This document shows positions 3,157 through 57,139 of a DNA stretch of 64,000 bases, one piece after another. The DNA is taken from NCBI RefSeq assembly GCF_036507355.1, contig NZ_AP027877.1; one strand, written 5' to 3'. The notes below the pieces were generated by a model. It saw only the letters and a list, made by a program, of their open reading frames with translations. It did no database searches and was not told the origin of the DNA. The translations under genes were made by a program, and so were the position numbers. Each line of letters starts with the position of its first letter. The first letter of the stretch is position 1. The DNA comes from Escherichia coli. Lineage in GTDB: Bacteria; Pseudomonadota; Gammaproteobacteria; Enterobacterales; Enterobacteriaceae.

Positions 3157-4626
3157 TTAATGGCTTTCCGGCGTCGCAATCATGCGTTTCAGCCACGGCA
3201 CCATCAACAGCATCACTACTGCAACGCCCAGTGTGACCAGACCAATCTTACCAAACACGTTGGTATAGACAGGCAACGTCTCAAGCGGATCGGTAATGTT
3301 GTCTGGTACTGCGGTAAATGTTGCCACATAGCCGCCCAGCAAGAACGCGGCAGCCTGCGTCAGGAACCACATCCCGAGAATAAAGCCCATCAAATGCTGC
3401 GGCACCAGGGCAGCAATCATCGCCAGGCCAAGGGCGCTAATAAACAGTTCACCTAAGCTCTGGAATAAGTACACCAGCACGATAAACCATGGCGATGTCA
3501 GCCCTTGTGCATCCGCAAACCACATTCCCGCAGCTGCCGCCGTCAAAAAGCCCAGTGAGCACATAAACATGCCGAGAGTAAATTTCATCGGCATGGAGAG
3601 GTCTTTGCCTTTATTCCCCAGATGGGTGTAGATACCTGCCAGTACCGGGCTGGCGAGCACCACCCAGAACGGGTTAAGCGCCTGGAAGCTCACCGGGTTG
3701 ATGGAAAAACCGAGAATTTCATGATGCACGTTGTTGATGGCAAAGAAGTTCAGCGACGTTGGCATCTGGGCGTAGAGAATGTAAAACACCACCGCTTCGA
3801 GCATCAGGACAAAGGCGACAAACATTTTATTGCGCCCGGTTTTATCCAGCTTGAATGCCTGACGAAAGAAGATGATGGTGACGACGATGGAGAGAACAAT
3901 CAGCACCAGATTGGCGACTTCTACGTTGTGCATCAGCCAGGCGCAGACGAAGATCATCACCACGCTGCCAAGTAATACGTACAACAGTTTGCTGAAGCTC
4001 ATTGGCCGGAAGTCGGGCTCAGAACCAATGTCTTTCACCATTCCACGACAGGCGATGTAAACCAGTAATGCGATAATTAACCCCGCCCCGCACAGGTTGT
4101 AGGTGACTGAATAGCCGAATCTATCAGCGATCACAGGGGCCAGCGATAACGCTATCAACGAGCCGATGTTGATCGACATATAGAACAGGGTGAATGCGCC
4201 ATCAAGGCGCGGATCTTTCGGCGGATAGCACTTCGAAAGCAAGCTGGCTGGGTTAGCTTTAAACAGGCCGTTACCGACAGCGATAGTCCCCAGGGCGATG
4301 AAAATCAGGTCAGGCTTAAGTAGCGACATGCCGGTCATGAAGTAGCCAATCGCCAGCACAAGTGCTCCGAGAACAATGGTGCGTTTGGTCCCCAGCAGGT
4401 GGTCGCCGACATAGCCGCCAATGGAAATGAGGCCATAGACCAGCGCAGCAAAAGCACCAAAAGTGACAAAAGCCTGCTCTTGCGAGAATCCAAGCTGTTT
4501 AACGAAGAAAACCGCCAGTACGCCCTGCACGCCGTAGTAGCCGAATCGCTCCCATAACTCGACAAAAAAGATCATGAAAAATGGGCGAGGTTGCTGCAGC
4601 ATCCCCATGGGTGTTGTTGTATTCAT
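3157..4626 (-). CDS. dtpB: dipeptide/tripeptide:H+ permease (POT family)
   Basis: 489-aa polytopic membrane ORF with POT-family signature; position between rsmJ and uspA. Confidence 0.9.
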
Positions 4627-5377: not shown

Positions 5378-5767
5378 AGTGTTACTCCTTCCATAAAGTT
5401 GTCGATGACTGGCCAGCTAGCGTTTCTTGTGCCGTTACGTCACCCGCGTCCTGCGAACTACGTGCGCGGGGCTAACCCAGCCGTAAAGATTCAGTGTTAA
5501 GACCATCCTTACCTTATAGCGACCCGGATGATCCGTCAATCCGCCTTGCTTACCCGTTAGATAAACAAATTTTCGACATGAATATATTGATAGTGGTTAA
5601 CCTTCTGGAAAAAAAACAACCTGATCTCCTACACTATCTATAGAGCCGCTCGGATGTTGGTCACCACAAAAGCGGTTTCTCCAGGACCTGGTGTTAACTG
5701 ATTGGCAGCGTATCGGGAGCGGTAGCCCCGGGGTGGAACTCCGCGGGCAGGTCGCCGGGGAGGAGGT

Positions 5768-6103
5768 ATGATAAGCACCGTCGCATTATTTTGGGCTTTA
5801 TGTGTCGTTTGCATTGTTAACATGGCGCGCTATTTCTCATCACTACGCGCGTTGTTAGTGGTACTGCGTAACTGCGATCCATTGCTCTATCAATATGTTG
5901 ATGGAGGGGGCTTTTTTACCTCACATGGCCAACCCAACAAACAGGTGCGTCTCGTTTGGTATATCTATGCCCAACGTTATCGCGATCATCACGATGATGA
6001 GTTTATTCGCCGCTGTGAGCGGGTGCGTCGGCAGTTTATTCTGACCAGCGCATTGTGTGGTCTGGTGGTGGTCAGCCTGATTGCCTTGATGATTTGGCAT
6101 TAA
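5768..6103 (+). CDS. uspB: universal stress protein B (small membrane protein)
   Basis: 111-aa ORF with two hydrophobic segments, divergent from uspA. Confidence 0.9.
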
Positions 6104-6173: not shown

Positions 6174-7673
6174 TTACAGGAACTGCAAGGAGAGCCAGTA
6201 AAGCCCGCCGGAAAGCAGTACCGCAGCCGGAAGGGTAAACACCCAGGCCATCAGAATGCTGGTCACGGTTTTACGCTGTAAGCCGCCACCATCTACCACC
6301 ATCGTCCCCGCGACAGAAGAGGAGAGTACGTGAGTAGTGGAAACCGGCATCCCGGTATAACTCGCCAGGCCGATAGACACTGCCGCAGTCATCTGGGCAG
6401 ACATCCCCTGAGCGTAGGTCATGCCTTTCTTACCGATTTTCTCACCGATAGTCGTTGCCACACGACGCCAGCCAATCATCGTACCGATACCTAACGCCAG
6501 CGCGACCGCCATGATGATCCACACCGGTGCATACTCGATGGTGCTAAGCATGTCGGACTTCAGTTTCTTCAACAGGCGCTGATCGTCAGCACTCACGCCA
6601 GGCATCTTCACCACTTTGTCGATAGTGTCAGAAACGCACAGCATAATGCGGCGCATCTGGCTACGTTGATCAAGCGACAGCTTGTCGTAGCTTTCCACAT
6701 CGGTAGTCAACATGCCTTTCAGGCGGTTGAGCGCGTTAATGGTATTCGACGGATGGCAATGGAACTCCGCGGGTTGCGTTGCGCCAGCTTCCGGAGCCGG
6801 TACTAATTGATCAGCACCAGTAGCTTGTTTCAGCAGCGCAGGATGCTGCTCAAAGTAAGCTTCGACGTTGTTGATGGCATCACGGGTACGGGTGATTTCG
6901 TAGCCAGTGGCATTCATGTTCACCACGAAGCCTGCTGGTGCGACACCAATCAATACCAACATAACCAGACCAATGCCTTTCTGACCATCGTTTGCGCCGT
7001 GCGAAAACGCCACGCCGATAGCGGAAAGGATCAGCGCGATACGCGTCCAGAACGGTGGCTTTTTCTTGCCGTCTTTCTTTTCACGCTCCGCTGGGGTCAG
7101 GTGGATTCGGGCGCGTTTCTTGGTGCCGCTCCAGTAGCGACGCAGCAAGAAAATCAGACCGCCAGCAAACACCAGGCCGACAATAGGGGAAACGATCAGA
7201 GAACCGAAAATACTTAATACTTTCGGGATATTGAGTGCATCCACCACTGACGTCCCGGTCATCAACGCATTGGTTAAACCAATCCCGATGATCGCGCCAA
7301 TCAGCGTATGAGAGCTGGATGCAGGTAAACCAAAGTACCAGGTACCCAGGTTCCAGATAATCGCCGCCAGCAACATAGAGAACACCATGGCAAGGCCATG
7401 AGACGATCCCATATTAAGCAGCAGATCCGTCGGCAGCATATGCACAATGGCATAGGCAACACTCAGACCACCCAGCAAAACACCCAAAAAGTTGAACACC
7501 GCTGCCATAACCACGGCGAGCTGAGAACGCATCGCGCGGGTATAGATAACGGTTGCCACGGCGTTGGCTGTGTCATGGAAACCATTGATGGCTTCGTAGA
7601 ACAGCACAAAAGCCAGTGCAAGCAATAATAACAGCCCGGTATGCAAATCCAGGCCAGCAAACAAATGTAGCAT
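6174..7673 (-). CDS. pitA: low-affinity inorganic phosphate transporter
   Basis: 499-aa PiT-family membrane ORF. Confidence 0.92.
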
Positions 7674-7904
7674 AGGACGTTACGCCATTTTGAGGACATG
7701 AACGCGGCGCATTATCAGTGACTTTCGCGGCGCGGGCAAAGTGAAATATAGACTTTTTTTGATTTGCCTCCTGTATAGATTTCACTCAAAAAATAATTAT
7801 CTTATATAATTCAGGCAAATACTTCCTTTTAGTAATATTGATGCTGGTGCGACCACTGAGGAATCTTTACAATTCACGCCCGTTTTTTCTAAGAGGAGCG
7901 CAAC

Positions 7905-32222: not shown

Positions 32223-32276
32223 ATCAGGGCCAACGTTTAATGGAAAATGAAAGTGCGTATCGTATCACTTGTCGCC

Positions 32277-33326
32277 TCATCCCGGTAACCGACTTTTCGG
32301 TCTGCCCGGCCCCAGTAAAATCGCCAGTTTGCTGCCGCCTTTCGTCGTTTCCATCCAGATTTTACACACGCTGGTTAATGGCACCGAAAGTAGCATCCCT
32401 ACCGGGCCGAGCAGCCATCCCCAAATTAACAATGAAAGAAATACCACCATGGTGGACATCCCCAGGCGATGGCCCATCATCCGTGGTTCTAAAATATTGC
32501 CGATGACCATATGGACCACTAAAAACAATGCGCCGACCAGAATACATTCGTAAACACCATTAAACAGCAGCACCTGAATCATTGGCGGTACGGCGGAAAT
32601 TACCGCGCCGATATTGGGCACGTAGTTGAGCAAAAACGCCAGTACTGCCCACATCAGCGCAAACTGCACCCCCATCAGCTCCAACCCCAGCCAGACGATG
32701 ACACCTGTCCATAAACTGAGTAGCGTCTTTAACGCCAGATAATGCGAAACGCCTTTAAGTGCGCGGTGTAATCCTGCGATATGAATCTGTGGATTATTCA
32801 ATGCAAAACGCATTTTGTAAGGGACGTGGCGCACTTCAAATAGCATGAAAACAACGGTCATCACCAGCAAAAGTACGCTTGCCATTGCTCCGGACAGCCC
32901 GGTCATTAGCGCCGTGGTGAAGGTAACCACTTTTTCCGAGTCCATCCGCTGCAGCATTCGCTCCGGCGACATATGCAAATTAAGAAAAGGCAACATCTCC
33001 TGCAATTTAAAAAGTTTGCGCGTCAGCTCCTTATTAAACTTCGGCAGCATAGAGATAAATTCGTTAAACGATGCCGCCAGTACGCCGACCAGCGCGGTTA
33101 GTGCGATCAGCATCACCACCACTACAATCGTAATGGCAACGGGGCGTTGTACTCCCCGACGAATAAACCAGGTGACGAGCGGGTTGAGGACGATGGCAAA
33201 AAACAGCGCCAGTAACAGCTGCACAATGATATCTGCCGCTGCGTGAATGCCCGCGAGGATCACTACCAGCGAGGCCAGCTTGAGCAGAATGTGCATGCCC
33301 GTTTTATCGGGTTGAGGGGTTTCCAT
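32277..33326 (-). CDS. yhhT: AI-2E/PerM-family membrane transporter
   Basis: ORF 32277..33407; probable start at the internal METPQPDK giving about 349 aa. Confidence 0.8.
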   Translation of the reverse strand: METPQPDKTGMHILLKLASLVVILAGIHAAADIIVQLLLALFFAIVLNPLVTWFIRRGVQRPVAITIVVVVMLIALTALVGVLAASFNEFISMLPKFNKELTRKLFKLQEMLPFLNLHMSPERMLQRMDSEKVVTFTTALMTGLSGAMASVLLLVMTVVFMLFEVRHVPYKMRFALNNPQIHIAGLHRALKGVSHYLALKTLLSLWTGVIVWLGLELMGVQFALMWAVLAFLLNYVPNIGAVISAVPPMIQVLLFNGVYECILVGALFLVVHMVIGNILEPRMMGHRLGMSTMVVFLSLLIWGWLLGPVGMLLSVPLTSVCKIWMETTKGGSKLAILLGPGRPKSRLPG

Positions 33327-47172: not shown

Positions 47173-47439
47173 ATGTCTGCTGTTAAAAAGCAGCGTATCG
47201 ATCTGCGTTTAACTGACGATGACAAAAGTATGATTGAGGAAGCGGCAGCGATATCTAATCAGTCCGTCAGCCAATTTATGTTGAACAGCGCTTCGCAGCG
47301 GGCTGCGGAAGTGATTGAACAACATCGGCGGGTGATCCTCAATGAGGAATCCTGGACGCGGGTGATGGATGCGCTGAGTAATCCACCGTCACCAGGTGAA
47401 AAGCTAAAACGTGCGGCAAAACGTCTTCAGGGAATGTAA
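47173..47439 (+). CDS. DUF1778 antitoxin (AtaR/TacA-like)
   Basis: 88-aa ORF, RHH-like N-terminus (RIDLRLTDDDKSMIEEAAAISNQSVSQFML); 6-nt gap to the downstream GNAT gene. Confidence 0.75.
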   Translation: MSAVKKQRIDLRLTDDDKSMIEEAAAISNQSVSQFMLNSASQRAAEVIEQHRRVILNEESWTRVMDALSNPPSPGEKLKRAAKRLQGM

Positions 47440-47445
47440 TAATTT

Positions 47446-47973
47446 ATGGATGATCTGACGATAGAGATTCTGACCGATGATGCAGATTATGATCTACAGC
47501 GATTCGACTGCGGCGAGGAAGCGTTAAATCTCTTTCTGACGACACATCTGGTTCGTCAACATCGCAACAAAATTCTGCGAGCGTATATCCTTTGTCGCAA
47601 CACTCCAGAACGTCAGGTGCTGGGATATTACACATTATCCGGCAGTTGTTTTGAACGAGCCGCATTGCCCTCGAAATCGAAACAGAAAAAAATTCCCTAC
47701 AAAAATATTCCCAGCGTCACTCTTGGGCGTCTGGCAATTGATCATTCAATACAGGGGCAGGGATGGGGAGCAACACTGGTTGCTCATGCCATGAAAGTCG
47801 TCTGGTCAGCCTCTTTAGCGGTAGGTATTCACGGTCTTTTTGTCGAGGCGCTGAATGAAAAAGCCCATACGTTTTATCAGTCGCTGGGCTTTATCCCGTT
47901 AGTCGGGGAAAACGAAAATGCGTTATTTTTCCCAACGAAATCCATTGAACTGCTTTTTACACAGAGCGATTAA
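47446..47973 (+). CDS. GNAT-family acetyltransferase toxin (AtaT/TacT-like, predicted aminoacyl-tRNA acetyltransferase)
   Basis: 175-aa ORF with acetyl-CoA-binding motif (IQGQGWGATLVAHAM) and GNAT core; classical antitoxin-toxin gene arrangement. Confidence 0.75.
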   Translation: MDDLTIEILTDDADYDLQRFDCGEEALNLFLTTHLVRQHRNKILRAYILCRNTPERQVLGYYTLSGSCFERAALPSKSKQKKIPYKNIPSVTLGRLAIDHSIQGQGWGATLVAHAMKVVWSASLAVGIHGLFVEALNEKAHTFYQSLGFIPLVGENENALFFPTKSIELLFTQSD

Positions 47974-50860: not shown

Positions 50861-52134
50861 AACCGATGCATATTGCAATGGCGTTGCTCTCTGCCGCGAT
50901 GTTCTTTGTCCTGGCAGGCGTTTTTATGGGCGTACAACTGGAGCTGGATGGCACCAAACTGGTGGTCGACACGGCTTCAGACATCCGTTGGCAGTGGGTG
51001 TTTATCGGCACGGCGGTGGTCTTTTTCTTCCAGATTTTGCGACCTGCTTTCCAGAAAGGGCTGAAAAGCGTTTCCGGACCGAAGTTTATTCTGCCCGCGA
51101 TTGATGGCTCCACGGTGAAGCAAAAGCTGTTTCTCGTGGCGCTGCTGGTGCTTGCGGTGGCGTGGCCGTTTATGGTGTCGCGTGGGACGGTGGATATCGC
51201 CACCCTGACCATGATCTACATTATTCTCGGCCTCGGGCTGAACGTGGTTGTTGGTCTTTCTGGTCTGCTGGTGCTGGGGTACGGCGGTTTTTACGCCATC
51301 GGCGCTTACACCTTTGCGCTGCTCAATCACTATTACGGCCTGGGCTTCTGGACCTGTCTGCCGATTGCCGGGTTAATGGCGGCGGCGGCGGGCTTCCTGC
51401 TCGGTTTTCCGGTGCTGCGCCTGCGCGGCGACTATCTGGCGATCGTTACCCTCGGTTTCGGCGAAATTGTGCGCATATTGCTGCTCAATAACACCGAAAT
51501 TACCGGCGGCCCGAATGGTATCAGTCAGATCCCGAAACCGACTTTCTTCGGCCTCGAGTTCAGCCGTACCGCCCGTGAAGGCGGCTGGGACACGTTCAGT
51601 AATTTCTTTGGCCTGAAATACGATCCCTCCGATCGCGTTATCTTCCTCTACCTGGTGGCGTTGCTGCTGGTGGTATTAAGCCTGTTTGTCATTAACCGCC
51701 TGCTGCGGATGCCGCTGGGTCGCGCCTGGGAAGCGTTGCGTGAAGACGAAATCGCCTGCCGTTCGCTGGGCTTAAGCCCGCGTCGTATCAAGCTGACCGC
51801 CTTTACCATCAGCGCCGCGTTTGCGGGTTTTGCCGGAACGCTGTTTGCGGCGCGTCAGGGCTTTGTCAGCCCGGAATCCTTCACCTTTGCTGAATCAGCC
51901 TTTGTACTGGCGATAGTGGTGCTCGGCGGTATGGGCTCGCAATTTGCGGTGATTCTGGCGGCTGTTCTGCTGGTGGTATCGCGCGAGTTGATGCGTGATT
52001 TCAACGAATACAGCATGTTAATGCTCGGTGGTTTGATGGTGCTGATGATGATCTGGCGTCCGCAGGGCTTGCTGCCCATGACGCGCCCGCAACTGAAGCT
52101 GAAAAACGGCGCAGCGAAAGGAGAGCAGGCATGA
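50857..52134 (+). CDS. livM: branched-chain amino acid ABC permease
   Basis: 425-aa membrane ORF overlapping the livH stop. Confidence 0.93.
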
Positions 52135-52898
52135 GTCAGCCATTATTATCTGTTAACGGCCTGATGATGCGCTTCGGCGGCCTGCTGGCGGTGAACAACG
52201 TCAATCTCGAACTGTACCCGCAGGAGATCGTCTCGTTAATCGGCCCTAACGGCGCCGGAAAAACCACGGTCTTTAACTGCCTGACCGGTTTCTACAAACC
52301 CACCGGCGGAACCATTTTACTGCGCGATCAGCATCTGGAAGGTTTGCCGGGGCAGCAAATTGCTCGCATGGGCGTGGTGCGTACCTTCCAGCATGTGCGT
52401 CTGTTCCGCGAAATGACGGTGATTGAAAACCTGCTGGTGGCGCAGCATCAGCAACTGAAAACCGGGCTGTTCTCTGGCCTGTTGAAAACGCCTTCTTTCC
52501 GTCGCGCCCAGAGCGAAGCGCTCGACCGTGCCGCCACCTGGCTTGAGCGCATTGGTTTGCTGGAACACGCCAACCGTCAGGCGAGTAACCTGGCCTACGG
52601 TGACCAGCGCCGTCTGGAGATCGCCCGCTGCATGGTTACGCAGCCGGAGATTTTAATGCTCGACGAACCTGCGGCAGGTCTTAACCCGAAAGAAACGAAA
52701 GAGCTGGATGAGCTGATTGCCGAACTGCGCAATCATCACAACACCACTATCTTGTTGATTGAACACGATATGAAGCTGGTGATGGGAATTTCGGACCGAA
52801 TTTACGTGGTCAATCAGGGGACGCCGCTGGCAAACGGTACGCCGGAGCAGATCCGTAATAACCCGGACGTGATCCGTGCCTATTTAGGTGAGGCATAA
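52131..52898 (+). CDS. livG: branched-chain amino acid ABC ATPase
   Basis: 255-aa ORF with Walker [10 protein letters not shown]. Confidence 0.93.
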
Positions 52899-52899
52899 G

Positions 52900-53613
52900 A
52901 TGGAAAAAGTCATGTTGTCCTTTGACAAAGTCAGCGCCCACTACGGCAAAATCCAGGCGCTGCATGAGGTGAGCCTGCATATCAATCAGGGCGAGATTGT
53001 CACGCTGATTGGCGCGAACGGGGCGGGGAAAACCACCTTGCTTGGCACATTATGCGGCGATCCACGCGCCACCAGCGGGCGAATTGTGTTTGATGATAAA
53101 GACATTACCGACTGGCAGACGGCGAAAATCATGCGCGAAGCGGTAGCGATTGTCCCGGAAGGGCGTCGCGTCTTCTCGCGGATGACGGTGGAAGAGAACC
53201 TGGCGATGGGCGGCTTCTTTGCCGAACGCGACCAGTTCCAGGAGCGCATAAAGTGGGTGTATGAACTGTTCCCGCGTCTGCATGAGCGCCGTGTTCAGCG
53301 GGCAGGCACCATGTCCGGCGGTGAACAGCAGATGCTGGCGATTGGTCGCGCGCTGATGAGCAACCCGCGTTTGTTGTTGCTTGATGAGCCATCGCTCGGT
53401 CTTGCGCCGATTATCATCCAGCAAATTTTCGACACCATCGAGCAGCTGCGCGAGCAGGGGATGACTATCTTCCTCGTCGAGCAGAACGCCAACCAGGCGC
53501 TAAAGCTGGCGGATCGCGGCTACGTGCTGGAAAACGGTCATGTGGTGCTCTCCGATACTGGTGATGCACTACTGGCGAACGAAGCGGTGAGAAGTGCGTA
53601 TTTAGGCGGGTAA
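52900..53613 (+). CDS. livF: branched-chain amino acid ABC ATPase
   Basis: ORF 52888..53613; likely start MEKVMLSFDKV; Walker A GANGAGKTT. Confidence 0.93.
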   Translation: MEKVMLSFDKVSAHYGKIQALHEVSLHINQGEIVTLIGANGAGKTTLLGTLCGDPRATSGRIVFDDKDITDWQTAKIMREAVAIVPEGRRVFSRMTVEENLAMGGFFAERDQFQERIKWVYELFPRLHERRVQRAGTMSGGEQQMLAIGRALMSNPRLLLLDEPSLGLAPIIIQQIFDTIEQLREQGMTIFLVEQNANQALKLADRGYVLENGHVVLSDTGDALLANEAVRSAYLGG

Positions 53614-53624
53614 ATTATCGATAA

Positions 53625-53647
53625 CCCGGCAGCTAAGTTCTGCCGGG
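53625..53647 (+). terminator. hairpin after livF
   Basis: CCCGGCAG-CTAAGTT-CTGCCGGG stem-loop; weak T tract. Confidence 0.5.
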
Positions 53648-53731
53648 CTCTTCGTCCGTATACAGACTTGTTTCAACTGACCGGGAGGATTAAAACCAGA
53701 CCACTTATTTGCCACGGAAAGGTTCACTCCC

Positions 53732-54478
53732 ATGCATTATGCCGTTGTTGTCATGCTTGAACTGCTTTGCTGTATTCACGCTTACCGTACCGGACAAGAG
53801 CGGTACTGGATTTTTATCATTTTCTGTTTTCCGGTGATTGGCTGCGTGGCGTATTTCGTCATAGTGATGCTGCCTGAAACGGGCGCTGACCGTCACGGGC
53901 ATACTTTGCTGATGCGCCTGCAGGACAAACTCAACCCTGAGCGCCACCTGCGCAAATTAACCGAAGAACTGGCGATTGCCGAGACGAATCAAAACCATTA
54001 TGCGTTGGCTAATGAACTGGCGCGTCTGGAGCGTTACCACGAAGCCGTTCCCCATTATCAGCAGGCGTTAAGCGGGATATTCGCCCATGAAGCGGCAATG
54101 ATGTTAAGCCTGGCGCAGGCACAGTTTGCTATTCAGGAGTTCGCCGCCTGTCAGCAGACGCTGGAAGATGTGATGCGTTATAACCCTGATTTTCAGTCGG
54201 CAGACGGGCATTTGTTATTTGCCAGAACGTTAGCCGCACAAGAAAAATACGCTGATGCGGAAAGCGAGTTTGAAGTATTGATTTCTTATTACCCCGGCCC
54301 GCAGGCGCGTATTTACTATGCGGAAATGTTGGCGAAAATGAGTCGGTTACGTGAAGCCAACGAGCAGTATGTTGCTGTAGTTGATACGGCTAAACGCTCA
54401 AGACCTCATTATAGAAAACACCACCGGGAATGGATTAAGACCGCCAATGAACGGCTGAAGCAGAGTGTGGTGCAATGA
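53732..54478 (+). CDS. hypothetical membrane-anchored protein with helical (TPR-like) C-terminal domain
   Basis: 248-aa ORF; N-terminal hydrophobic hairpin (YWIFIIFCFPVIGCVAYFVIVML), alpha-helical alanine-rich C-terminus; not expected between livF and ugpB from the K-12 gene order (memory). Confidence 0.55.
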   Translation: MHYAVVVMLELLCCIHAYRTGQERYWIFIIFCFPVIGCVAYFVIVMLPETGADRHGHTLLMRLQDKLNPERHLRKLTEELAIAETNQNHYALANELARLERYHEAVPHYQQALSGIFAHEAAMMLSLAQAQFAIQEFAACQQTLEDVMRYNPDFQSADGHLLFARTLAAQEKYADAESEFEVLISYYPGPQARIYYAEMLAKMSRLREANEQYVAVVDTAKRSRPHYRKHHREWIKTANERLKQSVVQ

Positions 54479-54699
54479 AAATCTTCTTTGCCGTTAGACC
54501 AGTGTCGCGGCAATCTTTTGTTAAAATTGAAAAATGTAGCTCTCATCGGGCAGCAAAACTGGACGCAGAATTTGCTGCCATTTTTGCTCTTCATGGTAAG
54601 GAGTTCTGGCGATTAGCTGGCCGTTAATCGCCTCTTTTCAGTGCATTCTCGGGATATCCGTGCCCCATCTCCCATTTTCCCTCACCCGTACCGTCACCG

Positions 54700-54790
54700 C
54701 CTTGTCATCTTTCTGACACCTTACTATCTTACAAATGTAACAAAAAAGTTATTTTTCTGTAATTCGAGCATGTCATGTTACCCCGCGAGC
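54700..54790 (+). promoter_or_regulatory. Pho-box region of the ugpB promoter
   Basis: TTGTCATCTTTCTGACAC followed by CTTACAAATGTAACA and a downstream TGTCATGTTA, resembling tandem PhoB boxes (CTGTCAT-N4-CTGTCAC) about 60-140 nt upstream of ugpB. Confidence 0.55.
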
Positions 54791-54837
54791 ATAAAACGCG
54801 TGAATTCGCGCATTCGGTACAACAAGAGAGATAAACG

Positions 54838-56154
54838 ATGAAACCGTTACATTATACAGCTTCAGCACTGGCGCTCGGACTGGCGTTAATGGGGAATGCA
54901 CAGGCAGTGACAACCATTCCGTTCTGGCATTCTATGGAAGGGGAACTGGGTAAAGAGGTGGATTCTCTGGCCCAACGTTTTAACGCCGAAAACCCGGATT
55001 ACAAAATTGTACCGACCTATAAAGGCAACTACGAACAGAATTTAAGCGCGGGGATTGCCGCATTTCGTACCGGCAATGCTCCGGCTATTTTGCAGGTTTA
55101 TGAAGTTGGCACCGCCACCATGATGGCGTCGAAAGCCATTAAACCGGTATATGACGTGTTTAAAGAGGCGGGGATTCAATTCGATGAGTCGCAGTTTGTG
55201 CCGACGGTTTCCGGTTACTACTCCGACAGCAAAACGGGCCACTTACTCTCCCAGCCATTCAACAGCTCGACCCCCGTTCTCTATTACAACAAAGACGCCT
55301 TCAAGAAAGCAGGATTAGACCCGGAACAGCCGCCGAAAACCTGGCAGGATCTGGCGGACTATTCTGCAAAACTGAAAGCCTCCGGAATGAAGTGCGGCTA
55401 CGCCAGCGGCTGGCAGGGCTGGATCCAACTGGAAAACTTTAGCGCCTGGAACGGTCTGCCGTTTGCCAGCAAAAACAACGGTTTTGACGGCACAGACGCG
55501 GTGCTTGAGTTCAACAAGCCGGAGCAGGTGAAACACATCGCCATGCTCGAAGAGATGAACAAGAAGGGCGATTTCAGCTACGTCGGGCGTAAGGATGAAT
55601 CCACCGAGAAGTTCTATAACGGTGATTGCGCGATGACCACCGCCTCTTCCGGTTCTCTCGCTAATATTCGTGAGTACGCCAAATTTAACTATGGCGTAGG
55701 CATGATGCCTTACGACGCCGATGCGAAAGATGCACCGCAAAACGCCATTATCGGCGGGGCCAGCCTGTGGGTGATGCAGGGCAAAGATAAAGAAACGTAT
55801 ACCGGCGTGGCGAAGTTCCTCGACTTCCTCGCGAAGCCAGAAAACGCTGCCGAGTGGCATCAGAAAACCGGTTATCTGCCAATCACCAAAGCGGCGTATG
55901 ACCTGACTCGTGAGCAGGGCTTTTACGAGAAAAACCCAGGTGCGGATACCGCGACGCGTCAGATGCTGAACAAGCCGCCGTTGCCGTTCACCAAAGGTCT
56001 ACGTCTGGGCAACATGCCGCAGATCCGCGTGATTGTGGATGAAGAGCTGGAGAGCGTGTGGACCGGTAAGAAGACACCACAGCAGGCACTGGATACCGCC
56101 GTTGAGCGTGGAAATCAGTTGCTGCGCCGCTTTGAGAAATCGACGAAGTCTTAA
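54838..56154 (+). CDS. ugpB: sn-glycerol-3-phosphate periplasmic binding protein
   Basis: 438-aa ORF with signal peptide. Confidence 0.93.
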
Positions 56155-56159
56155 TCAGT

Positions 56160-56235
56160 GTAATGTCGGATGCGTTTCGCTTATCTGACCTGGCATCGCG
56201 TGTAGGCCGGATAAGCGAAGCGCATCCGGCACAGT
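56160..56235. repeat. REP/BIME element between ugpB and ugpA
   Basis: Inverted pair TGTCGGATGCGTTTCGCTTATCTGACC ... GTAGGCCGGATAAGCGAAGCGCATCCGGCA. Confidence 0.7.
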
Positions 56236-56251
56236 TCAGGAATTAACCGTA

Positions 56252-57139
56252 ATGTCATCATCCCGTCCGGTGTTCCGCTCGCGCTGGCTGCCTTATCTGC
56301 TGGTCGCGCCGCAGCTCATCATCACCGTTATCTTTTTTATCTGGCCTGCGGGCGAAGCGTTGTGGTACTCGCTACAAAGCGTCGATCCGTTTGGTTTCTC
56401 CAGCCAGTTTGTCGGCCTGGATAACTTCGTCGCGCTGTTTCATGACAGCTACTATCTCGACTCCTTCTGGACGACGATAAAATTCAGCACCTTTGTCACC
56501 GTCAGCGGTTTGCTGGTATCGCTGTTCTTTGCGGCGCTGGTGGAGTACATCGTGCGCGGCAGTCGTTTCTATCAAACCTTGATGCTGCTGCCGTATGCCG
56601 TGGCTCCCGCCGTTGCCGCCGTATTGTGGATCTTCCTGTTTAACCCCGGTCGCGGGCTGATCACCCATTTTCTCGCTGAGTTCGGCTACGACTGGAACCA
56701 CGCGCAAAATAGCGGTCAGGCGATGTTTCTGGTGGTGTTTGCCTCAGTATGGAAGCAAATCAGCTACAACTTCCTGTTCTTCTATGCCGCGCTGCAATCC
56801 ATTCCCCGTTCGTTGATCGAAGCCGCAGCCATCGACGGTGCAGGGCCGATTCGCCGCTTCTTTAAGATTGCGCTGCCGCTTATCGCCCCGGTGAGTTTCT
56901 TCCTGCTGGTAGTGAACCTGGTGTATGCCTTCTTCGACACCTTCCCGGTGATCGACGCCGCCACGTCCGGCGGGCCGGTTCAGGCCACCACGACGCTGAT
57001 TTATAAGATCTACCGCGAAGGCTTTACCGGACTGGATCTGGCTTCGTCTGCCGCACAGTCGGTGGTGTTGATGTTCCTCGTCATCGTGCTGACGGTGGTG
57101 CAGTTCCGCTATGTTGAAAGCAAGGTGCGTTACCAATGA
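56252..57139 (+). CDS. ugpA: G3P ABC transporter permease
   Basis: 295-aa membrane ORF. Confidence 0.93.

Follow-up and report, generated by a model that had tools for sequence, protein, structure and literature searches.

An accessory tetratricopeptide repeat gene with a predicted membrane hairpin in the multi-allelic livF-ugpB spacer of Escherichia coli

Introduction

LapB (YciM) is held in the inner membrane by an N-terminal anchor, and its TPR (tetratricopeptide repeat) domain serves there as a membrane scaffold. A comparable arrangement, an N-terminal inner-membrane anchor followed by a TPR domain, is predicted for the product of a gene that lies between livF and ugpB in an Escherichia coli chromosome (contig NZ_AP027877.1 of assembly GCF_036507355.1, of which a stretch of 64,000 nucleotides, the window, was analysed). 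Gene and product are referred to here as the TPR gene and the TPR protein. One member of the protein's family in AFDB carries the name 'Lipopolysaccharide assembly protein B'. LapB, however, combines a single transmembrane helix with about nine TPRs and ends in a rubredoxin-type zinc finger, whereas the TPR protein has a two-helix hairpin, about 4.5 TPRs, a basic end helix and, in its 248 aa, no CxxC motif. Given these properties, and with no NCBIfam LapB match at E <= 1, identity with LapB/YciM was rejected.

A second point of reference is the PLDc_N domain (PF13396) of the cardiolipin synthase ClsA, the second helix of which is matched by residues 26-44 of the TPR protein; similarly, the NCBIfam model bac_cardiolipin aligns residues 22-49 to its positions 31-60. 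Unlike ClsA, the TPR protein is without a PLD/HKD catalytic domain. Assignment as a cardiolipin synthase or phospholipase D was likewise rejected, there being no Pfam PLDc domain and a TIGR04265 score of 11.8 bits against a cutoff of 290, which comes from the N-terminal hairpin only.

The repeat fold itself is shared with CpoB/YbgF (tol_pal_ybgF, E 4.4e-7), with HemY (TPR_hemY_coli, E 0.004, at a score of 15.9 against a cutoff of 142) and with MamA (TM 0.75-0.79 over 164-170 residues). All three nonetheless stand apart in their identity to the TPR protein, which is 12-20%, and in their anchors and genomic contexts. CpoB (YbgF) in particular was rejected, as the TIGR02795 match reaches 30.5 bits against a cutoff of 90.1 and the context is liv/ugp, not tol-pal.

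A further described system bears on the sequence directly downstream. The C-terminal part of the antitoxin Phd is its Doc-binding part, as seen in Phd-Doc structures. A remnant of a phd gene that follows the TPR gene retains the AKLDAEFA motif together with the remaining C-terminal sequence, in frame with the stop codon; relative to phage P1 Phd, the DNA-binding two-thirds at the N-terminus are missing, and so is the doc toxin gene. Against this background, the TPR gene is an ordinary accessory chromosomal gene: real, conserved, strain-variable and already annotated.

A protein-coding gene between livF and ugpB

The spacer of the window (53614-54837, 1224 bp) holds a single long ORF, 53732-54478, on the plus strand, which is also the strand of liv and ugp (Table 1). 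An earlier note, made from the sequence of the window alone, had described here a 248-aa ORF with an N-terminal hairpin and a helical body, and on this the ORF itself, hydropathy, AlphaFold2 and Pfam all agree. A Shine-Dalgarno-like GGAAAGG (53716-53722) is found 9 nt 5' of the ATG.

Table 1. Positions, in the window, of the features in and around the livF-ugpB spacer
Feature	Position	Strand	Remarks
livF	52900..53613	+	final gene of livKHMGF; left edge of variable slot; RefSeq livF of 714 bp has the same stop
G+C-rich hairpin 3' of livF	53625..53647	+	CCCGGCAG-7 nt-CUGCCGGG, without U tract; RNA fold -17.1 kcal/mol, z -2.7
Candidate sigma-70-like promoter of TPR gene	53668..53696	+	TTGTTT, 17 nt, TAAAAC; putative, from reading of the sequence
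TPR protein CDS	53732..54478	+	248 aa, ATG start; ORF; equivalent to ECs_4300 of O157:H7 Sakai
Two-helix hydrophobic hairpin (PLDc_N-like)	53732..53881	+	codons 1-50; Pfam, conservation, hydropathy, AlphaFold2
TPR domain	53939..54472	+	codons about 70-247; about 4.5 TPR helix pairs plus basic capping helix (tail pI 10.4)
50-aa ORF	54475..54627	+	ATG overlaps TPR stop (ATGA); RefSeq hypothetical protein in some genomes
phd antitoxin gene remnant (3' third)	54520..54627	+	stop codon in register
Intrinsic terminator (predicted)	54608..54640	+	10-bp stem (54608-54632) then UCUUUUC; terminator scan; fold -19.2 kcal/mol, z -3.2
ugp regulatory block	54655..54837	+	183 bp, common to every spacer allele in the same layout; three-allele alignment
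ugpB	54838..56154	+	initial gene of ugpBAECQ; right edge of slot

The product is predicted, from the model and profile matches, to be an inner-membrane protein in which a PLDc_N-type two-helix hairpin precedes a soluble TPR domain. Mean Kyte-Doolittle hydropathy is 2.07 over residues 4-18 and 2.67 over residues 26-47, and the hairpin helices of the AlphaFold2 model run from residue 2 to 20 and from 23 to 50. Both the 7-residue loop between the helices (2.2 K+R) and the 15 residues after helix 2 (3.1 K+R) are basic, and the positive-inside rule accordingly favours neither orientation in the membrane. PLDc_N-like and TPR-like domains, which the earlier note had suggested as targets for profile searches, are indeed returned by Pfam, the former as a weak match confined to the second helix (i-E 6.9e-4; short and marginal). 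A precomputed PF13396 match also exists on one relative of the protein. Within the hairpin, residues H16, W26, P34, G37, Y41 and P48 are each kept by 93% or more of 167 family members, among which the structural TPR positions are likewise conserved. Such conservation of polar and aromatic residues suggests that the hairpin may be more than a passive anchor, with a part in lipid contact or self-association.

For the body of the protein, Pfam returns TPR_19 (1.3e-5), ANAPC3 (8.1e-4), TPR_1 (8.6e-4) and TPR_16 (8.2e-3). The AlphaFold2 model, built with 20 relatives as input, has a mean pLDDT of 88.2, with values in the 90s across residues 70-240; a low-confidence linker at residues 51-53 is followed by helix pairs over residues 71-247. 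Foldseek against the PDB matches this model to consensus TPR, to the OGT TPR domain and to MamA, each at probability 1.0 and at 12-20% identity. Pfam, AlphaFold2 and Foldseek thus concur on a TPR-repeat protein, a class defined by at least three tandem 34-residue repeats.

Comparison with other genomes indicates that the frame is maintained. Pairwise dN/dS of the TPR gene is 0.20 with Escherichia sp. E1V33, 0.08 with E. whittamii and 0.09 with E. coli FDAARGOS_943, and against C. freundii pN is 0.14 and pS 0.80 (saturated); judged from these ratios, the gene is under purifying selection. That the ORF might be spurious, a possibility the earlier note had allowed for, is contradicted by the dN/dS range of 0.08-0.2 and by the ribosome-binding site, and 53732-54478 is, with high confidence, a functional protein-coding gene.

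The TPR protein belongs to a large Proteobacteria family of uniform length (about 245 aa). Full-length relatives have 94-95% amino-acid identity in other Escherichia, 68-77% in Citrobacter (75% in C. freundii) and 41-44% in Pseudomonas (43% in P. indica), with others across many Proteobacteria. When 1.84 billion representative proteins were searched with a profile, at least 661 clusters (50% identity) reached E <= 1e-30, nearly all of 240-255 aa and matched end to end, and 154 stretches with relatives were confirmed among GTDB species genomes. Foldseek against AFDB50 matches the same family only, its members being unnamed or called 'cardiolipin synthase N-terminal domain-containing protein'.

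Neither is the gene new. It is ECs_4300 of O157:H7 Sakai, annotated 'hypothetical protein'; RefSeq calls it 'tetratricopeptide repeat protein' (WP_000558842, strain FDAARGOS_943), and the exact protein of the window is present in NCBI on 83 contigs. The ORF is already present in the O157:H7 Sakai reference and absent from K-12. A literature search on ECs4300/Z4823, on the livF-ugpB pair and on PLDc_N returned nothing relevant and no paper naming the gene.

Alleles of the spacer

The earlier note supposed that K-12 has no gene at this position and that the ORF may be strain-variable, and both points hold. In K-12 MG1655, b3453-b3454 enclose a geneless 398-bp spacer with the livF terminator and two REP sequences, and the TPR segment is found in 659 of 5426 complete E. 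coli genomes (about 12%), carriers including many O157:H7 strains, O145, O27:H7 and IAI39. Of 5425 genomes matching the query, most align at the livF and ugpB ends only (about 35% of the query), a pattern that is, in the sampled rows, that of K-12-type genomes. The spacer alleles part directly after the livF stop and reunite at 54655, 183 bp 5' of the ugpB start.

Between these two points the livF-ugpB spacer is a multi-allelic slot. Its contents are the TPR gene with a phd remnant, as in the window; phd-doc; TPR with an SMI1/KNR4 gene; TPR with two ORFs and phd-doc; or REP sequences only. The allele with the TPR gene and a short tail occurs in strain ET350, in E. whittamii, in Escherichia sp. 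E1V33 and on contigs of an 'E. fergusonii' cluster, a label that is NCBI's and is attached to the representative of the cluster whose contigs carry the gene. The SMI1/KNR4 form is that of strain JNE151685 and Escherichia sp. MOD1-EC7003, and a small membrane ORF accompanies the TPR gene in E. whittamii and E. albertii. The phd-doc toxin-antitoxin pair occupies the slot in 107 of the 5426 genomes; intact pairs are seen at the slot in EC12 and in C. freundii, where the order is TPR, 93-aa ORF, 135-aa ORF, phd, doc. An IS4-like insertion is also among the slot contents. In Salmonella, STM3558-STM3559 are presumably located between ugpB and livF. A Salmonella gene list gives this pair as phd-doc (PMC3868539, a retracted paper).

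Loss from K-12-type strains or recent gain

The earlier note took the TPR gene for a possible insertion. Synteny comparison suggests that the polarity is probably the reverse, as an ortholog is found at the same site in other Escherichia, in Citrobacter and in Pseudocitrobacter. Indeed, every Enterobacteriaceae relative found has its ortholog between livF and ugpB: within Escherichia, E. albertii, E. whittamii, two unnamed species and the cluster labelled 'E. fergusonii', and outside it, three Citrobacter lineages and Pseudocitrobacter. In E. albertii the TPR gene is frameshifted, and the gene can thus be considered dispensable. That same genome also has the K-12-type REP segment: positions 123-398 of the K-12 spacer, which include the second REP, are 88.9% identical to the sequence directly downstream of the E. 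albertii pseudogene. The K-12 REP pair is, furthermore, found upstream of the TPR gene in Pseudocitrobacter. Because gene and K-12-type REP co-occur in E. albertii, and the REP pair recurs in Pseudocitrobacter, the K-12 form is most simply read as a deletion. We consider it probable, from these sequence comparisons, that K-12-type strains lost the TPR gene; the gene would then be an old resident of the slot, and its deletion in K-12-type E. coli would have left the REP elements behind.

The most serious competitor to loss from K-12 types is that the TPR gene arrived recently in the lineage of the window strain, as a small islet, with the K-12 form as the ancestral empty site. Its presence in just 12% of complete E. 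coli genomes would fit such an event, as would the mobile-type cargo that the slot also takes (phd-doc, the SMI1/KNR4 gene, the IS4-like insertion) and a regional mosaic of divergence that shows recombination. Within Escherichia, on the other hand, dS of the TPR gene is 0.13 and 0.35, close to that of livG, livF and ugpB (0.10-0.27). Against Citrobacter, the saturated pS of the TPR gene is above the 0.46-0.57 of the flanks; this excess speaks for recent insertion, and an old lateral exchange of the TPR allele is conceivable. Composition and borders argue in the opposite direction. G+C content (0.49-0.53) is host-like and resembles that of the flanks; a search for direct repeats flanking the slot returned none, and no integrase, transposase or tRNA is seen at its borders. 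By repeats, mobility ORFs and composition, then, the slot does not have the marks of a mobile element or genomic island. With the same position occupied in Citrobacter, in Pseudocitrobacter and in no fewer than five species or clades of Escherichia, and with gene and K-12-type REP segment joined in E. albertii, recent insertion appears unlikely.

Transcription and the ugp promoter

The hairpin that follows livF is specific to the TPR allele. It was not among the terminators called by the scan and is predicted to be weak or leaky in that role. The corresponding hairpin of K-12 and EC12 is a different one (GGAGUC..GACUCC) and has a U run. Since the U tract is missing from the hairpin of the window, some read-through from liv into the TPR gene, as the earlier note had envisaged, is plausible from the sequence. 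The promoter scan found no good sigma-70 promoter for the TPR gene, the candidate in Table 1 falling under the criteria of that scan; its elements and spacing are kept in Escherichia spp. and in C. freundii (TTGTTT, 17 nt, TAAATA). Transcription would probably come from this weak promoter of the gene's own, together with some liv read-through, and would stop at 54608-54632, where the predicted intrinsic terminator closes the TPR transcript ahead of the ugp promoter. An Rfam search of 53500-54900 returned no family.

Over the ugp regulatory block, identity with the K-12-type spacer is 98.4%. The motif seen by PhoB ChIP-seq at K-12 ugpB, TGTCATCTTTCTGACACC (PMC10294691), is found at 54703-54720, inside the shared block and 225 bp past the TPR stop, in keeping with the earlier description of the ORF as lying upstream of a Pho-box and on the strand of both operons. 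A weak CRP-like site at 54659-54674 (7/10 positions) is a guess. Because the block is common to the alleles and a terminator stands upstream, the ugp promoter is most likely unaffected by the TPR gene, and a stop at 54608-54632 would leave ugp control unchanged. The suggestion that the ORF could alter the architecture of the ugp promoter accordingly becomes improbable, with a 183-bp block shared by the alleles and a strong terminator ahead of it.

The phd remnant and its neighbourhood

The identity of the remnant is given by tblastx, at 47% over 36 codons against the phd of EC12 and 42% against that of C. freundii, and by blastn, at 82% over 44 nt. The Phd of EC12 itself aligns with phage P1 Phd (PDB 3hry/3k33). 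No doc follows, the ugp block beginning 27 bp further on. The 50-aa ORF that contains the remnant is annotated WP_001302354.1 in strain SC516; its frame is intact in O157, O145, 6EVA and SC516 but disrupted in E. albertii. It does not qualify as a Phd/YefM antitoxin, similarity being confined to the last ~36 codons and doc not being adjacent, and phmmer of this ORF alone against PDB sequences gave no match. The order TPR then phd is common to the window allele and C. freundii, and the window allele therefore looks like a trimmed C. freundii array. It would derive from a Citrobacter-like array (TPR ... phd-doc) through deletions that took out both small ORFs, doc and all of phd but its 3' end.

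The segment that follows the TPR gene, 54479-54654, varies far less than its surroundings. Across nine diverse genomes with the TPR allele, it is variable at 3 of 176 positions (pi 0.005). The corresponding figures are 82 of 750 for the TPR gene (pi 0.044; 0.089 at third codon positions), 20 of 118 for the livF-TPR spacer (pi 0.057), 8 of 183 for the ugp promoter block (pi 0.014) and 31 of 200 for third codon positions of ugpB (pi 0.056). On the wider sample, 636 of 640 genomes have the segment at 99% identity or above, as opposed to 527 of 659 for a piece of the TPR gene of equal length, the minimum identity of which is 92.0% (up to about 8% variation). The segment folds, as RNA, at -52.2 kcal/mol (z -2.6). 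Its near-invariance could reflect selection on the sequence or a younger ancestry through recombination. We regard it as improbable that 54479-54654 is functional, whether as a translationally coupled, Doc-binding mini-antitoxin of 50 aa or as a structured small RNA that derives from the 3'UTR and has its end at the terminator. If it were, function would account for the near-invariance beside the more variable TPR gene, and a mini-antitoxin made of the Phd end would guard the cell against incoming Doc toxins, an anti-addiction role.

Could the TPR ORF be a decaying or non-functional leftover like the adjacent phd fragment, with no present role, its conservation merely recent shared ancestry? 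The gene is gone from 88% of E. coli and frameshifted in E. albertii, it has no strong promoter by scan, and neither literature nor phenotype was found for it. A decaying frame, however, would hardly remain intact over 25-32% amino-acid divergence in Citrobacter, nor at a dN/dS of 0.08-0.2 and with pN so far below pS (0.14 against 0.80), and the family keeps invariant residues throughout and a uniform length over 661 clusters. Decay of the TPR gene is, on balance, improbable.

Possible function

For the TPR gene as a maintained gene, the mechanism that we put forward is that of a membrane-tethered adaptor. The hairpin would fix the protein in the inner membrane, and the TPR groove would keep a partner protein there, in the manner of LapB and other anchored TPR proteins. 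We propose this solely because of the fold class and architecture, by analogy, and it is tentative. Searches for a more specific role were negative within their scope. Foldseek against the PDB found generic TPR proteins only and no specific structural relative; phmmer of the TPR protein found no PDB sequence at E <= 0.01; and every NCBIfam match is far under its cutoff. Clustering of neighbouring ORFs (>=80 aa) at 72 loci of distant relatives found no family in more than 12 loci, and those that recurred reflect genus-level synteny.

That the TPR protein works in toxin immunity or phage defence, as one component of a conflict system with variable downstream genes (phd-doc, SMI1/KNR4, the small ORFs of C. 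freundii) could be argued from the antitoxin- or immunity-type genes repeatedly found directly downstream, their start codon sometimes overlapping the TPR stop, but is very improbable when PADLOC anti-phage defence models match 0 families at E <= 0.01, when the gene occurs outside Enterobacteriaceae by itself, no partner being conserved, and when the downstream cargo changes between strains while the TPR gene stays. Taken as a whole, the best explanation, held with moderate confidence, is an accessory membrane TPR gene, an old resident of the slot lost from K-12 types, with an adaptor role.

Implications

As a discovery the gene carries little weight, for the O157:H7 reference genomes have included it for years and routine annotation already labels it a TPR protein, and its presence brings no change to the understanding of ugp or liv regulation. 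What the analysis does provide is documentation of livF-ugpB as a multi-allelic slot, the K-12 form of which looks like a REP-flanked deletion scar. Attention is also drawn to the antitoxin remnant that follows the TPR gene and to its unusual invariance. Finally, ECs_4300 belongs to a large and well-conserved PLDc_N-TPR family, and it offers, in a tractable host, a reasonable first target for functional work on that family.

Divergence and conservation around the TPR gene

Compared with the corresponding region of E. coli FDAARGOS_943, window 52131-57139 is a mosaic of divergence, with dS of 0.12-0.14 for livG and livF and of 0.02-0.05 for the TPR gene, ugpB and ugpA. Because of this mosaic, the sequence comparison implies a putative recombination breakpoint close to the livF/TPR junction.

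The segment directly 3' of the TPR gene, which comprises the phd 3' remnant and a terminator, is near-invariant. Only 3 of its 176 nt vary among nine diverse genomes, and identity is at least 99% in 636 of 640 genomes; the TPR gene, the spacer and the synonymous sites of ugpB carry 5-20 times more variation. Its predicted RNA fold is a good one, at z -2.6, but a comparison with Rfam gave no match.

Contents of the livF-ugpB slot in other genomes

An SMI1/KNR4-family gene, from a family that frequently functions in toxin immunity, directly follows the TPR gene in E. coli JNE151685 and in Escherichia sp. MOD1-EC7003, its start codon overlapping the TPR stop in the latter. E. whittamii and E. albertii carry ~400 bp extra between livF and the TPR gene, a stretch containing a small hydrophobic ORF, and in E. 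albertii the TPR gene is frameshifted. In C. freundii, two ORFs of 93 and 135 aa, neither with an NCBIfam or PADLOC match, separate the TPR gene from phd-doc.

Other differences within the window

The yhhT side abuts the acpT/nikA side, unlike in O157:H7 Sakai; the window lacks the ~15-kb ECs_4324-ECs_4342 cluster of that strain, an acyl-carrier/fatty-acid-type biosynthetic cluster. Between livJ and panM, the two ORFs of window 47173-47973 look like a TacAT-type toxin-antitoxin pair; their Sakai counterparts are ECs_4308 and ECs_4307, and they are not known to occur in K-12.

Coordinates of features in the window and in comparison loci
Feature	Sequence	Position
Antitoxin-like ORF, 88 aa	window	47173-47439
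GNAT acetyltransferase ORF, 175 aa	window	47446-47973
yhhT-acpT/nikA junction	window	32242-32281
Near-invariant segment with phd 3' remnant and terminator	window	54479-54654
SMI1/KNR4-family gene	JNE151685 (L092)	3385-4068
SMI1/KNR4-family gene	MOD1-EC7003 (L011)	from 5799
Region of the extra livF-TPR stretch	E. whittamii (L014)	5473-6000
Region of the extra livF-TPR stretch	E. albertii (L015)	5462-6000
93- and 135-aa ORFs	C. freundii (L004)	6850-7676
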